Under the pieces are notes generated by a model. That model did no database searches and was not told the DNA's origin. It was given only the letters and a program-made list of their open reading frames with translations. DNA of 44,752 nucleotides from Clostridia bacterium (GTDB taxonomy: Bacteria > Bacillota > Clostridia > Oscillospirales > CAG-272), in the NCBI GenBank assembly GCA_017483125.1, contig JAFULU010000128.1, positions 1 through 44,752 of the forward strand. The letters are read 5' to 3'. Shown one piece after another: positions 1,883 to 22,171 of the stretch. Both the position numbers and the translations under genes were made by a program. Position 1 is the stretch's first letter. Each line of letters starts with the position of its first letter.

Positions 1883-2985
1883 CTTGTCTCCTCCTTTCGC
1901 AGGTCGCACAGGGCGGCGTAGCGGAGCTTTTCGGGGATGCTTCGCTGGGCGGATACCGTCTTGCCCTGGTTGCGGAGGGCTTCTACCTTGGCGGTGACGG
2001 CCGAGACCGGTACGGTCTCATCATACAGCACCAGCATATCCACATCGTAGGCGGGAGCGGTGTGAGGCAGTCCCTCCAAGAGGTCAAGGTACAGGGCAAA
2101 GCCGATGGCCCCCGACCTGCGTCCCATGCGCTTCATGAGCTTGTTGTACTGACCGCCCGACAGCACACACTCGCAGATGCCGTCCAGGTAGCCGCAGAAC
2201 ACCACGCCGTTGTAGTAGGACATATCGTTCATGATGGAGAAATCGAACCGCACGCGGCTTCCGTAGGGGGTGGCCTTCAGGTGATCCCGCAGGGCGGTCA
2301 GCTCGGAGATGGCCACTGAGACCGCCTCGTAGCGGCGGGCCAGAGGAGCCAGACGGGTCAGCACCGTATCCATGTCACCGTAAATGCTCACGAAATCCCG
2401 CAGGGCGGCGGTGTCGGTCTCGCTGACCCCCGCCTCGGCGCAGATGCGGCCCAGATCGTGGGTGTTCTTCTCCGAGATACAGCGGGCGATCTCACGGCGC
2501 ATGTTCGTGTCGGCGGTGATCTCGTCCAGCATGGCGGAGAGGATGCCCATGTGGGAAATATCCAGCGCGTAATTCTCGCTGACGGTGGCCAGGGAAGCGG
2601 CGGCCAGAGTCACCACCTCGCAGACGTCGTAGCTGTCCAGATCCCCGATGCACTCCAGACCCGTTTGCAGGATCTCCTTGAACTGATGGGTGCTCCCCGA
2701 CACGCGATAGACGTTCTCGTTGTAGCAGACCTTCTGCTTTTCCCCGGGGCGGTCCTCCCCGTTCTTGATGATGGAGAGGGTGACGTCGGGCTTGAGGGCC
2801 AGGAGCTTCCCCCCCACGTCGGTGAAGGTGATGATACGGTCGCTGACCAGAAAATCCTTGTTGCGGACGTAGAGGTCATACTCCTCAAATTTGCTCATTT
2901 TAAAGGGCAGATACCCGTAGCCGCGGTAGAGAGAGCGCAGAGCGAATACGGCTCTCTCCTCGGGCTTGAGATAGGTGGTGTTCAT
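1879..2985 (-). CDS. hisZ: ATP phosphoribosyltransferase regulatory subunit
   Basis: HisRS-like motifs LALKPDVTLSI, QTGLECIG, YYNGVVF, LSGGQY, AIGF; directly upstream of short hisG; AGGAG RBS before ATG 2985. Confidence 0.92.
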   Translation of the reverse strand: MNTTYLKPEERAVFALRSLYRGYGYLPFKMSKFEEYDLYVRNKDFLVSDRIITFTDVGGKLLALKPDVTLSIIKNGEDRPGEKQKVCYNENVYRVSGSTHQFKEILQTGLECIGDLDSYDVCEVVTLAAASLATVSENYALDISHMGILSAMLDEITADTNMRREIARCISEKNTHDLGRICAEAGVSETDTAALRDFVSIYGDMDTVLTRLAPLARRYEAVSVAISELTALRDHLKATPYGSRVRFDFSIMNDMSYYNGVVFCGYLDGICECVLSGGQYNKLMKRMGRRSGAIGFALYLDLLEGLPHTAPAYDVDMLVLYDETVPVSAVTAKVEALRNQGKTVSAQRSIPEKLRYAALCDLRKEETR

Positions 2986-3003
2986 AGGATGACTCCTTGA
3001 GTT

Positions 3004-3549
3004 GAAATGCAAAATGCAAAATGCAAAATTTATGAAGACTTTCGCTTAGGCGAAAGACAATCTTTGGGTATGGTCCATACATCAGGATACCCGAGAGGGG
3101 ACGTCCCATAGAAGTGTGTGTGGAACTTTTTTCTTCTCTCAATTACTTGATTATTGAATTGGGTTTTTCTTGCAAATAGCCGTAAGAAGAGCGATAATCT
3201 CTTTCGTGTCTGTTTCCACACTGAAAAACTGTTGGTCGGTCAGGTAATCGGTTGCGTGAAGTAACCGAAGCCAGTATCTTGTCTCGTTCGCTTCCTTAAG
3301 AGCAATATTCATCTTTGCGTAGAAATCCGCTGAAGATTGTGCTTTTTCTGCTTCTGCAATGTTGGCACCTATGCTTGTTCCGCTACGTAGAAGCTGTTTA
3401 GAAAGAACAAATTCTTTCTTACTGTCAGTCATGAAGCGGTACAGCTTAACGACTCTGATAGCAAAATGAAAGCTCTTTTCGTAGATCACATTCATGCGGG
3501 CTTATTCCTCGTTCTCCGATTTTGCATTTTGCATTTTTCATTTTGAATT
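3004..3549. mobile_element. Heptamer-array-bracketed cassette carrying a four-helix-bundle gene
   Basis: (AAAATGC)n at 3004-3030 and the inverted (ATTTTGC)n at 3519-3549 flank a low-GC ORF inside the his operon; CTTTCGC-ttag-GCGAAAG hairpin at 3039-3056. Mobility is inferred. Confidence 0.6.
3151..3495 (-). CDS. Four helix bundle protein (23S rRNA IVS-protein-like family)
   Basis: 114 aa with family signature KSFHFAIRVV...QLLRSGTSIGANIAEA...S.ADF..KMNIALKEANETRYWLRLL; visibly lower GC than neighbours. Confidence 0.9.
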   Translation of the reverse strand: MNVIYEKSFHFAIRVVKLYRFMTDSKKEFVLSKQLLRSGTSIGANIAEAEKAQSSADFYAKMNIALKEANETRYWLRLLHATDYLTDQQFFSVETDTKEIIALLTAICKKNPIQ

Positions 3550-3822
3550 TATGGCGATAGACAGCTTGTAGCCCCCCGCGCCGTATTCCAGACACTTGGA
3601 CACACGGCTGATGGTGGCGGTGCTCATGCCGGTCTCGCGGCTGATATCGGCGTAGTTGGCCCCCGCCGAGAGCATACCCGCGGCCTTGAGGCGCTGGGAA
3701 ATATCCAGGATCTCCTTGACGGTGCAGGCGTCCTCAAAGAAGGCGTAGCACTCGTCTCTGTCCTTCAGGGACAGGATGGCGTCGAACAGGGCGTCCACGT
3801 CGGGATTGTGAAGAGGTTTCAT
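3538..3822 (-). CDS. yerC: TrpR-like YerC/YecD protein, probable his-operon repressor (HisR)
   Basis: LFDAILSL..DECYAFFEDACTVKEI..ISQRL...GMSTATISRVSKCLEYG.GGY is the YerC signature; first gene of the his operon. Confidence 0.88.
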   Translation of the reverse strand: MKPLHNPDVDALFDAILSLKDRDECYAFFEDACTVKEILDISQRLKAAGMLSAGANYADISRETGMSTATISRVSKCLEYGAGGYKLSIAINSK

Positions 3823-3886: not shown

Positions 3887-3915
3887 ATTATAATACAAAT
3901 CGTCGGTTTTGTCAA
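3887..3915 (-). promoter_or_regulatory. SigA promoter of his operon
   Basis: Minus strand TTGACA (3915-3910) - 17 nt - TATAAT (3892-3887), perfect consensus. Confidence 0.85.
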
Positions 3916-12662: not shown

Positions 12663-13664
12663 ATGGCCAAGACTACCGCAAAAGCCCCCCTCGACCGCCG
12701 CAAGCTCACGGGCCAGCTCCTCTCCCTCGGCACGCTGGTTTTGCTGTTCGTGATGCTGAACCTCACCGTGTTCTTCGTCTTCACCCGCCGCTGTCTCCCC
12801 GCCACCAGCGAGGGGATGCAGGCCAAGTCGGTGGAGCTGGGGGCCTACCTGCCCTTTGAGGAGGACTCCAGGATCGTCAAGCTCGACGGCTCCCTGAAAC
12901 TCACCGAAGACCTCCCCGTCATCGACGGCGCGGCGGCCCTCTACCCCATTTTCTCGGGCTTCGTGAACGCCGTCTACCCCGACGACAGCGTCCATTTTGA
13001 CGGCGAAAACTTCACCCCCGACAGCGCACTCCAATACACCAACACCCGCGGCGCCTACAAGGGCATCGTAGACGGCACCGTGGATATCGCCATCTGCGTA
13101 GCCCCCTCGGAGGAGCAGCTGGCCTATGCCAAGGAGAAGGGCGTGGAGCTGGAATTCACCCCCATCGGCAGGGAAGCCTTCGTGTTCTTTGTCAACAAGG
13201 ACAATCCCGTGGACGGTCTCACCACCGAGCAGCTGCGGGGCATCTACGCGGGGGAGTACCGCAACTGGTCGGAGGTGGGAGGCGACAACACCCACATTGC
13301 CGTCCTCCAGAGAAACGCGGGGAGCGGCAGTCAGTCCGCCCTCCTGAACTTCATGGGGGACACCCCCGTGAAGACCGACTATCTCACCTTCATGGGCCGC
13401 TCCATCGGCTTCTCCTTCCGCTTCTACGTGGAGGGCATGGTGGGAAAAGACTCCCCCGAGGGCGGAGTGAAGCTCCTGGCTCTGGATGGGGTCTATCCCG
13501 ACACCGAGAACATCAAGAACGGCTCTTACCCCATCATCAACGAGCTGTACGCTGTTACCCGCAAGGGGGAGGAAAACCCCAATGTACAGGCCTTCGTGGA
13601 TTGGATGCTGACCGAGGAGGGGCAGGCCATCGTGGAGGGGTCGGGGTACGTGGGGATGGAGTAA
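12663..13664 (+). CDS. PstS-like phosphate-binding (PBP superfamily) membrane-anchored protein
   Basis: IDGAAALYP, PIGREAFVFFVNKDNPV..LT.EQLRGIYAG...NWSEVGG, QRNAGSGSQ, ENIKNGSYP motifs; N-terminal TM. Confidence 0.85.
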   Translation: MAKTTAKAPLDRRKLTGQLLSLGTLVLLFVMLNLTVFFVFTRRCLPATSEGMQAKSVELGAYLPFEEDSRIVKLDGSLKLTEDLPVIDGAAALYPIFSGFVNAVYPDDSVHFDGENFTPDSALQYTNTRGAYKGIVDGTVDIAICVAPSEEQLAYAKEKGVELEFTPIGREAFVFFVNKDNPVDGLTTEQLRGIYAGEYRNWSEVGGDNTHIAVLQRNAGSGSQSALLNFMGDTPVKTDYLTFMGRSIGFSFRFYVEGMVGKDSPEGGVKLLALDGVYPDTENIKNGSYPIINELYAVTRKGEENPNVQAFVDWMLTEEGQAIVEGSGYVGME

Positions 13665-13714
13665 ATGCAAAATGCAAAATGTCCTCGCTTCGCTCGGCGG
13701 AACGGCTGAAACGT

Positions 13715-13754
13715 AAAAAGAGGTGTCTTACCCGATGGGGCGAGACACCTTTTT
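13715..13754. terminator. Bidirectional terminator
   Basis: A5-g-AGGTGTCT...AGACACCT-T4 between convergent genes. Confidence 0.75.
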
Positions 13755-13756
13755 CG

Positions 13757-14272
13757 TTATTGGATATGGAGCTTTTTCGGGTCGATCACCGTCCGCAGGA
13801 GGGTGCGGAAGTCGGCTTCGTTGCCCTCGGTGAAGCCGTTCTTCGCCACAAGCTGGGCTTGTTTTTCGGCTATGTACAGGAAATAATAGTCGGGGCACTC
13901 GGTGACGCGCAGGATCGCATCATACGTATGTGGCGTGGGCTCGCGGCCCTGCTCTCCGTAGGTGTAGCCGTCCTGCGTAAAGGTAAAGGTGAATACCAAT
14001 TTGCGGGAAGCGATCCGCCAAGCCGTGATCTTGGGCAAAAGCATGAGAATCGGGCACCCCAGCGTTACGATGGAGGTGCAGATCACCACGAGATAGGTGA
14101 TAAGATCTCCCCATCCCCACGCGATGGACAGAAGCCCACGCACGGCGGGAATCGCGCTGAGGATCATCAGCACGGTCAGGAGTATCAGCGTCTTTTTGTC
14201 GGAGGCGTTGCTTTGAGACAAAAAGGCTGTGACGGCTTTATACGTCATGGGGGTGGTGTTTCGGATCTCCAT
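13757..14272 (-). CDS. YcxB-like membrane protein (paralog 2)
   Basis: Two TM helices then FTFT.DG...Y..I.RVTE..DYYFLYI....AQLV.KNGF; start at ATG 14272 behind GAAAGGAA. Confidence 0.8.
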   Translation of the reverse strand: MEIRNTTPMTYKAVTAFLSQSNASDKKTLILLTVLMILSAIPAVRGLLSIAWGWGDLITYLVVICTSIVTLGCPILMLLPKITAWRIASRKLVFTFTFTQDGYTYGEQGREPTPHTYDAILRVTECPDYYFLYIAEKQAQLVAKNGFTEGNEADFRTLLRTVIDPKKLHIQ

Positions 14273-14292
14273 AGCGGTTCCTTTCGTGGTAC

Positions 14293-14832
14293 TCAATGAA
14301 TATGGAGCTTTTTGGGGTCGATCACCGTCCGCAGGAGGGTGCGGAAATCGGCTTCGTTGCCCTCGGTAAAGCCGTTCTTGTCCACGATGTGGGCGGCGTT
14401 GGGGGCGATGAATAGGTAGAAGTAGTGCTCGGATTCGGTGACCTTGACGATGACGCTATAGCCACACTGCTGCTGCTCCTTGAGGGCCTTGGAGACGGTG
14501 GACTGCTCGAAGCCTTCCTCGGTGAAGATGTAGTCGACCACGCTCTCCTGGTCAGCCTGCTTGCAGGCGGTGCGCTTGACGGTAATGGGGACGACGGTGC
14601 TGTAGCCGATATAGATGATGAGGAGGACGATCATCGCGGCGATCATGGTGGGGGACAGGTAGGGATCTTCACCCAAAAGGAATAAGAGACACTGACTGAA
14701 CAGGAAAAACACCAGAGCGCCTATGGCGATCAGGCAAAGGATGTTGATCAACCTGCGGGTCTTGCGGCGGAAGGTCTTGTTGAACTCAATGATACAGTCG
14801 TGGGTGTAGGGGGTGGTGTTTTTGATTTCCAT
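14293..14832 (-). CDS. YcxB-like membrane protein (paralog 1)
   Basis: Two TM helices then YIFTEEG...YS.IVKVTESEHYFYLFI....AHIVDKNGF; GAAAGGAG RBS. Confidence 0.8.
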   Translation of the reverse strand: MEIKNTTPYTHDCIIEFNKTFRRKTRRLINILCLIAIGALVFFLFSQCLLFLLGEDPYLSPTMIAAMIVLLIIYIGYSTVVPITVKRTACKQADQESVVDYIFTEEGFEQSTVSKALKEQQQCGYSVIVKVTESEHYFYLFIAPNAAHIVDKNGFTEGNEADFRTLLRTVIDPKKLHIH

Positions 14833-14866
14833 GGGTTTCTCCTTTCAAAGGGGGTACACTATATAA

Positions 14867-14892
14867 GACGTAAAAGGATAGCGAAATCTTTC
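14867..14892 (-). promoter_or_regulatory. Candidate ECF-sigma promoter
   Basis: Minus strand GAAAG - 17 nt - CGTC(TTATATAG) upstream of the YcxB pair. Confidence 0.5.
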
Positions 14893-14939
14893 GGATTTTG
14901 CGAAAAAAGTTGAAAAAATTTGGCTGGGTGTCTTACCCG

Positions 14940-14968
14940 ATTATACCACACTCCGCTCATCCTGTCAA
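14940..14968 (-). promoter_or_regulatory. SigA promoter for YcxB pair
   Basis: Minus strand TTGACA - 17 nt - TATAAT with extended TG. Confidence 0.8.
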
Positions 14969-15033
14969 CTCTCTATTGTCCGTATCCGTTCCCCAATTTT
15001 GCATTTTGCATTCTGCATTTTGCATTCTAACAA

Positions 15034-21950: not shown

Positions 21951-22171
21951 AATTCGCAATTCGTAATGCGTAATTCGTAATTGCGGGAGCCTTTCGCTGA
22001 AGCGAAAGCCGATTCATTAGTGATTCGAAAGAAATTCTGTTCTTGAAAATTTGTTGTCCATCAGGGGAAATTCCGCTATATGGAGTTAGCCCCCTTGCCA
22101 TACGATCATATTTTACCAACGGCAAGATGTTTCGTTCATTACGAATTACGAATTGCGAATTGCGAATTGCG
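21951..22171. repeat. Heptamer-array-bracketed non-coding element
   Basis: Five AATTCGY-type units at 21951-21985 and inverted (RCGAATT)4 within 22137-22171; CTTTCGC-tgaa-GCGAAAG hairpin at 21991-22008. Confidence 0.8.

Follow-up and report, generated by a model that had tools for sequence, protein, structure and literature searches.

The histidine operon of a Clostridia bacterium (GTDB lineage CAG-272) raises the question of why a gene for a four-helix-bundle protein, enclosed by two inverted arrays of 7-nt units, lies between yerC and hisZ. The operon is encoded in contig JAFULU010000128.1 of assembly GCA_017483125.1, and the whole stretch of 44,752 nt that was analyzed is called the window here. 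The genome to which the window belongs (3.5 Mb, 384 contigs, 98.9% complete) is named G000, and its relatives in the genus are numbered in the same manner. The element in question occupies positions 3005-3550 (546 bp). We consider it likely that this element is an old, vertically inherited cassette of the intervening sequence (IVS) type, which is co-transcribed with the histidine operon.

The cassette and its junction

The cassette possesses an array at each end. The 5′ arm (left array, 3519-3550, minus strand) is composed of about 4.5 tandem heptamers (AAATTCA, AAATGAA, AAATGCA and AAATGCA), and the 3′ arm (right array, 3005-3029, minus strand) contains 3.5 tandem heptamers complementary to them. 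In a repeat search, positions 3005-3029 and 3519-3543 were detected as arms of 25 nt with 96% complementarity at a distance of 489 nt, and a second register of the left arm (3526-3550) showed 92% complementarity. An 18-mer of the array gave nine matches in the window when up to three mismatches were allowed, against 0.00 expected from 100 shuffles. The G+C content is 0.385-0.445 over 3001-3500 versus about 0.61-0.67 in hisZ and yerC. When the minus strand of 2975-3575 was folded with RNAfold, the two arrays were paired in both the minimum free energy (MFE) structure and the centroid structure; the MFE was -152.1 kcal/mol (z = -2.6), and none of 20 shuffles folded equally well. A reading of the DNA made from its letters alone (hereafter, the sequence-only reading) had described inverted arrays around a low-G+C open reading frame (ORF) and a stem of about 25 bp, and both are borne out by these results.

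Between the arms, three parts were distinguished on the minus strand. A leader (3496-3518) carries the Shine-Dalgarno sequence GAGGA of the enclosed ORF, the ORF itself (3151-3495) encodes 114 amino acids, and a 3′ untranslated module of 121 nt (3030-3150) follows. This module contains a hairpin (arms 3037-3045 and 3050-3058, loop 3046-3049) and then a short conserved motif adjoining the right arm. In a three-way alignment of the cassettes of G000, G011 and G015, the arrays, the leader with its Shine-Dalgarno sequence and the hairpin were conserved, whereas the rest of the 3′ untranslated region had diverged.

The ORF product matched PF05635 ("23S rRNA intervening sequence protein") with 105.1 bits against a cut-off of 33.8, and TIGR02436 ("four helix bundle protein") with 115.6 bits against a cut-off of 24. 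Among structures, it matched PDB entry 2RLD over residues 2-110 (E 5.4e-39) and entry 2GSC (E 0.0042), both of which contain five chains. The sequence-only reading had called the element IVS-like from its shape. The likeness goes further than this: the ORF belongs to the protein family that is encoded in 23S rRNA IVSs, and the size, the arm length and the low G+C content also fit an ORF-bearing IVS as described in PMC4990558. For the ORF, dN/dS was 0.06-0.15 at a synonymous rate (dS) of at least about 1.8. In the comparison of G000 with G015, the nonsynonymous substitution rate (dN) was 0.111 and dS was 1.78, giving a dN/dS of 0.062. Against a further cassette in G017, which is described below, the ratio was 0.146 for G015 and 0.082 for G011; for the remaining three ORF pairs dS was saturated and gives no ratio. 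Judging from these ratios, the cassette ORF is under strong purifying selection.

The yerC-hisZ junction was compared across the genus, and three types of alleles were found. The junction is filled with an orthologous cassette in G000, in G011 (80% identity over 1131 nt) and in G015, where it is split on two contigs ending in arrays. In these filled alleles the left and right junctions are the same, and about 45 nt of native sequence, comprising the yerC end and the spacer, are gone. A scar was found in G013 (contig C223, locus L040) and G043 (C185, L166). There, one array and the ORF leader are left and are fused at the ATG to hisZ, so that YerC gains an array-encoded tail and the former ribosome-binding site (RBS) of the cassette serves hisZ. 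The junction is empty in nine species (G005, G010, G016, G018, G002, G020, G017, G041 and G042), in which a longer native YerC tail is followed by a short spacer before hisZ. The junction of G044 stands outside this tally. The direct yerC-hisZ arrangement with a longer YerC C-terminus, which the sequence-only reading had anticipated from an insertion at the end of yerC, is thus found in relatives, and every relative with the gene at this site has the arrays as well.

A HisZ tree with 17 rows united the filled alleles of the three species in a clade, with a support of 81 in the Shimodaira-Hasegawa-like approximate likelihood-ratio test (SH-aLRT), and G000 and G011 were grouped within it (92). 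This clade lies inside a 7-row HisZ clade (93), together with the scar pair (100) and the empty pair of G016 and G041 (94). Judging from these alleles, one gain followed by one partial loss is the most parsimonious history. The cassette is a DNA insertion that took the place of about the last 45 nt of yerC and the spacer. Its gain fits a single event in an ancestor shared by the three species with filled junctions, followed by vertical inheritance, and the protein, the arrays, the leader and one hairpin have been kept while neutral sites became saturated.

A second locus was found in G017 (C93, L059 1345-1870). Although the his junction of this genome is empty, it has a gene with 62% identity and the same kind of arms, which is flanked upstream by a signal-peptidase-like gene and on the other side by a TasA-like gene. 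Translation of the signal-peptidase-like ORF runs through the array, and this ORF overlaps the start of the cassette ORF.

Homologous cassettes and ORF-less relatives

For the cassette gene, 78 homologue loci were collected from the genomes of other gut bacteria, with 33-79% identity (all but one at least 51%). Their sources include Ruminococcus, Oscillospiraceae, Acutalibacteraceae, Bacteroidales, Flexilinea and others, and the isolate Ruminococcus flavefaciens FD-1 is among them. An array was called when the flanking inverted repeat scored at least 15 and self-identity at lag 7 was at least 60%. By this test, 64 of the 77 testable loci had period-7 flanking inverted repeats, whereas all 134 shifted positions used as controls were negative. 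Among the 13 loci that failed, several show arrays by eye. Arrays were called on each side in 59 loci; there, the element length was 290-582 bp (median 453), and the arms contained 3-5 units, except for three longer downstream arrays. Of 55 distinct cassettes, 43 had an identical consensus unit on the two arms. Altogether 13 unit types were observed, with a common AATKC core. An early idea, that every heptamer provides a stop codon whatever the reading frame, was dropped, as it is true for AATKCGT only and not for AAATGCA, AATKCGG or AATKCGC.

We also considered whether ordinary heptameric simple sequence repeat (SSR) arrays might happen to lie on both sides of an unrelated, horizontally acquired gene. 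This is hardly credible: heptameric intergenic arrays are known (PMC4692102) and solo arrays occur in G000, but the bracketing of homologues far exceeds the controls, the same unit is shared by both arms in most cassettes, and at the his junction the presence of the gene coincides with that of the arrays. The tandem 7-nt units between genes of Xanthomonas and Nostoc, as described in PMC4692102, are G-rich and quadruplex-forming, whereas the units here are A/T-rich and form inverted pairs, with a gene or a hairpin module between them.

The strands of the genes next to the homologous cassettes were assigned by a longest-ORF rule. Where an assignment was possible, the upstream ORF shared the strand of the cassette in 52 of 54 cases and the downstream ORF in 42 of 47; of the two upstream exceptions, one is the yerC of G011, which is known to be miscalled. 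Upstream genes mostly stop no more than a few bases from the array, and downstream genes start about 12-20 nt past it. Stable RNA genes are also found as neighbors. The cassette at L151 (1436-1876) ends 5-6 nt ahead of a transfer-messenger RNA (tmRNA) gene (1882-2230), and that at L089 (1446-1878) ends 5-6 nt ahead of a tRNA gene (1884-1963). Thus, the cassette also rides beside stable RNA genes. No location in rRNA was found among the 20 homologue loci scanned with Rfam.

The array is not limited to the his operon. In G000, the array 18-mer (up to two mismatches) gave 339 matches, 177 forward and 162 reverse, whereas the reversed control gave none. After merging, these correspond to 165 arrays, mostly of 4 or 5 units, some of which are solo. 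Of 52 convergent neighbor array pairs, 43 enclose 108-141 nt and form ORF-less hairpin elements of about 190 bp. An oriented alignment showed that these elements and the his cassette share a hairpin module at one arm and a short leader-like motif at the other. The stem of the shared hairpin is kept by compensatory changes, for example from T-A pairs to C-G. Eight ORF-less copies are 94-97% alike, and about 20 of the 47 listed array pairs are nested in a further outer inverted repeat. The his cassette is the only ORF-carrying member of this AAATGCA family in G000. The family therefore shows a feature of miniature inverted-repeat transposable elements (MITEs), namely terminal inverted repeats with many dispersed short ORF-less copies, and the his copy itself carries an ORF. 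Relative to their neighbor genes in G000, ORF-less copies were in the same orientation in 10 cases, opposite in 13, mixed in 4 and undetermined in 14.

When the array types of cassettes were compared with those of ORF-less arrays in the other genomes, each genome was seen to hold several types, and control counts were high in two AT-rich genomes.

Many contigs of G000 (for example, C14, C18, C161, C169 and C280) start or end within AAATGCA arrays, and this family is a main cause of the fragmentation of the assembly into 384 contigs. A further convergent pair of AAATGCA arrays was found in the window at 13663-13680 (plus strand) and 14996-15027 (minus strand), 1316 nt apart. Two paralogous YcxB-like (PF14317) genes of 179 amino acids lie between them on the minus strand (13757-14296 and 14293-14832), and the array at 13663-13680 overlaps the TAA stop codon of a PBP_like_2 gene (12663-13664). 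The region 13663-15027 is either a larger cargo cassette or two solo arrays.

Possible action of the arrays in RNA or through the protein

The order on the minus strand is promoter, yerC, 5′ array, leader, ORF, trailer, 3′ array, hisZ RBS, hisZ, hisG and hisD. A match to the promoter consensus (TTGACA, 17-nt spacer, TATAAT; 12 of 12 positions) is located upstream of yerC at 3887-3915. The yerC gene (3538-3822) encodes a TrpR-like protein of 94 amino acids (PF01371, E 3.6e-25) and ends with TGA at 3540-3538. The hisZ gene (PF13393) has the Shine-Dalgarno sequence AAGGAG at 2998-2993 and its ATG at 2985-2983. Scanning of the minus strand of the cassette interior called no promoter and no terminator, and an Rfam scan of the cassette gave no family match. 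The cassette, which appears to have no promoter or terminator of its own, would be transcribed from the yerC promoter as part of the his mRNA, and the four-helix-bundle protein would be translated from its own Shine-Dalgarno sequence. The arrays would be the cis sites of the element, in which the AATKC core is conserved and the two variable bases of one arm match those of the other.

The sequence-only reading had further claimed that the stem brings the yerC stop codon beside the hisZ RBS and that the upstream array supplies the last codons of yerC. Both claims agree with the positions found: the right arm ends 6 nt ahead of the RBS, and the codons for N, S and K together with the TGA lie inside the left array. 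Once transcribed, the two arms could pair to give a stem of 25 bp next to the hisZ RBS, and this stem is a plausible substrate of RNase III. By analogy with the known systems described below, pairing of the arms in the mRNA and their cutting or binding by RNase III seem quite possible, although we do not regard them as probable. Looping-out of the RNA or excision of the cassette by RNase III is plausible.

If the arrays act in RNA before all else, the cassette is folded out of the his mRNA, either by looping-out or with excision by RNase III, and the operon functions as it would with yerC directly next to hisZ; dispersal and the protein are then secondary. We regard this explanation as possible but doubtful. 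The predicted stem and the short distance from the right arm to the hisZ RBS are in its favor, as is the co-orientation of ORF-bearing cassettes with both neighbors, by which they fill operon junctions. The RNase III gene is present in G000, and stem cutting has precedents in rRNA IVSs (PMC4990558) and in Correia elements in mRNAs (PMC2649163). The Correia repeat enclosed elements, which are MITEs of Neisseria, resemble the present elements in being short, bounded by inverted repeats, located before genes and included in transcripts, and their arm hairpins are bound or cleaved by RNase III; they differ in that, as described in PMC2649163, they are ORF-less, duplicate a TA target and have non-tandem arms. 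However, pure pairing needs neither a 7-nt period nor an AATKC core kept across 13 unit types. Furthermore, the ORF-less copies, at 10 same and 13 opposite, are found in both orientations. Thus, the best explanation for the shared orientation of ORF-bearing cassettes and their neighbors is that the gene lacks a promoter and depends on transcription by the host, which accounts for it equally without any action in RNA.

The pairing of the arms was analyzed in 51 cassettes. Watson-Crick pairs numbered 1429, whereas 35 G.U, 33 A.C and 156 other mismatches were counted, and one position per heptamer unit was often unpaired between the arms. The counts of G.U and A.C bear directly on the explanation by action in RNA: G.U pairs are not in excess over A.C. 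The 156 other mismatches include 104 G.A or U.C mismatches that fall on the variable fourth (K) position of the heptamer, so that mismatches recur at one position. A stem selected in the sense RNA would be expected to show wobble asymmetry; in its absence, pairing in the sense RNA lacks specific support. In addition, the 5′ arm contains the yerC stop codon, and translation of yerC in G011 extends over the entire arm. Ribosomes that enter or cross the 5′ arm would compete with the stem.

Another explanation resembles the REPIN-RAYT systems, in which REPINs (doublets of repetitive extragenic palindromic, or REP, sequences) follow the gene for RAYT, a REP-associated Y1 transposase. A single-copy, vertically inherited four-helix-bundle protein would act in trans, recognize the arrays as DNA or RNA, and maintain or disperse the ORF-less elements. 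This appears unlikely. The two systems seem alike in that one single-copy gene lies between inverted copies of a repeat whose short ORF-less doublets are scattered over the genome, with long vertical inheritance of both gene and repeats; REPIN-RAYT systems are reported to be single-copy and vertically inherited (PMC3116915, PMC3337134, 10.1101/2021.07.10.451892). The cassette gene is likewise inherited vertically and kept by purifying selection despite its single copy. The arm length is held at 3-5 units, and both PDB homologues are 5-chain entries; if one subunit of a pentamer read one heptamer, the 4-5 units would be explained. On the other hand, the cassette gene encodes a 114-aa four-helix bundle, which is not a transposase fold and for which nucleic-acid binding and catalysis are putative, and its repeats are tandem heptamer arrays rather than REP palindromes. 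The ORF-less copies are also not close to the cassette ends in sequence.

The AAATGCA 18-mer was counted in 29 genomes of the genus in relation to this explanation. The three highest counts (339, 219 and 120) belonged to the genomes with intact cassettes. The scar genomes had 112 and 69, and the genomes with an empty junction had 63, 55, and 30 or fewer. By analogy with REPIN populations that track the RAYT gene, it is suggestive that the counts follow the intact cassette. However, the three top genomes form one clade, and thus the rank pattern is a single evolutionary observation; the counts are also sensitive to assembly quality.

Two narrower claims belong to the same line of thought. That the protein itself reads the heptamer arrays, and thereby keeps the arms and the ORF-less population alike, seems to us improbable, at about the same level as the REPIN-like explanation or slightly below it. 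We give still less credit to a more specific proposal, which is rather improbable: the four-helix-bundle protein would be the trans-acting factor of an unrecognized replicator, a pentameric ring reading 4-5 AATKCNN heptamers in DNA or RNA, one per subunit. It is rather improbable to the same degree that such a ring maintains, homogenizes or disperses its own cassette and the ORF-less elements, like a REPIN-RAYT system without a transposase.

A role like that of Avd in diversity-generating retroelements (DGRs), in which a resident reverse transcriptase would copy the cassette RNA with the four-helix-bundle protein as its cofactor, is very improbable. PF05635 resembles Avd, and PF05635 is the family most often found beside DGR reverse transcriptases; Avd has a homologous four-helix-bundle fold and acts on structured nucleic acid together with an enzyme (PMC10053308). 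However, no PF00078 reverse transcriptase was found in the 98.9% complete G000, which argues against such a role with a resident enzyme. The cassette carries no reverse transcriptase, template or variable repeats, and its neighbors are yerC and hisZ; no template or variable repeat was seen near it, and the examined cassettes, with the median given above, are too small to encode a reverse transcriptase.

We return to the preferred reading, that of an old IVS-type cassette inherited vertically and carried on the his transcript. Besides the wobble counts, the recurrent mismatches and the translation of yerC into the 5′ arm, several observations weigh against it. No target-site duplication was seen at the his junction when filled and empty alleles were compared, and native sequence is missing; thus, simple cut-and-paste transposition does not fit. 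In the HisZ tree, the support for the filled clade is modest, and the branching order of the filled group, the scar group and the pair of G016 and G041 is not settled. The strands of neighbor genes in the homologous loci come from a crude rule and not from a gene finder. The RNA-library material (four runs) consists of assembled contigs without ends or depth, which show just the element and the empty-site allele: one contig of 551 nt covers 3005-3545, and another corresponds to the empty site. Over 60-108 nt, with the array counted in, the hairpin module of the his cassette and the ORF-less copies share only about 76-87% identity, so that the his cassette is not their recent parent, and the candidate role of a recent master copy was rejected. 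Finally, G000 also contains array families of AAGATAC, AATKCGT and AATAATG without a matching four-helix-bundle cassette in the assembly, which speaks against the REPIN-like explanation as well.

Relation to rRNA intervening sequences

ORF-bearing IVSs in 23S rRNA are known from Coxiella burnetii (the helix-45 IVS), Leptospira and others (PMC4990558). According to that account, they share with the cassette the protein family (S23p, PF05635), a size of 428-444 nt versus 546, and a terminal inverted-repeat stem of about 28 bp versus 25. They also have a G+C content below that of the host, and they are carried on the host transcript with no promoter of their own. The differences are as follows. 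The cassette is located between protein-coding genes of an mRNA operon instead of within 23S rRNA. Purifying selection on its ORF is strong, whereas decay is reported for the ORF of Coxiella (PMC4990558). It has dispersed ORF-less relatives in the genome, and its arms are tandem heptamer arrays. For the IVSs, excision by RNase III has been shown (PMC4990558), whereas for the cassette it is a putative step. Thus, the cassette works like an ORF-bearing rRNA IVS but fails the defining location, and we do not count it as a member.

No 23S rRNA gene is assembled in G000, and only one of the 29 genomes (G022) has 23S genes; its three copies are uninterrupted, with no large insert. G022 has neither the arrays nor the four-helix-bundle gene.

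The ORF-bearing 23S IVSs have been known for three decades, and in the account of PMC4990558 a mobile-element origin was proposed long ago and never explained, while their spread and the role of the protein are still unexplained. A literature search, which did not extend to supplementary files, found no description of heptamer-bracketed PF05635 cassettes. The his locus presents the same unit in an ordinary biosynthetic operon. Beyond the rRNA cases, it offers filled, scarred and empty alleles, a protein under selection, and ORF-less relatives in the same genome. With these three assets, it becomes testable whether the protein binds to the heptamer arrays and whether the arms are cut in the mRNA. 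The allele series at one junction, the evidence on selection and dating, the homology between the cassette ends and the ORF-less repeats, and the negative wobble test are new from this window. For annotation, such cassettes truncate or extend neighbor genes, as in the tail of YerC, and they break short-read assemblies. If the replicator proposal were true, it would also explain the origin and spread of the 23S rRNA IVSs.

One more ORF-less hairpin element was observed in the window at 21958-22154. It has AATKCGT arms and a small conserved hairpin module at both ends, and it is located directly after the stop codon of a gene.

Five PF05635 genes were found in G000, and only the one in the his operon is flanked by arrays. 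The other four (contigs C49, C29, C287 and C153) have no heptamer arrays. Each of them follows a multi-hairpin region of about 200 nt, which consists of copies of a 6-7-nt word and of the complement of that word and is often adjacent to tRNA genes. Two of these regions, on C49 (L003 123-315) and C29 (L004 1241-1437), score as Gut-1 RNA (RF01706) on both strands. Three of the four matches are at 50.5-59.6 bits against a gathering score of 50, and the fourth is at 44.5. The association of Gut-1 with four-helix-bundle genes may deserve a separate look.

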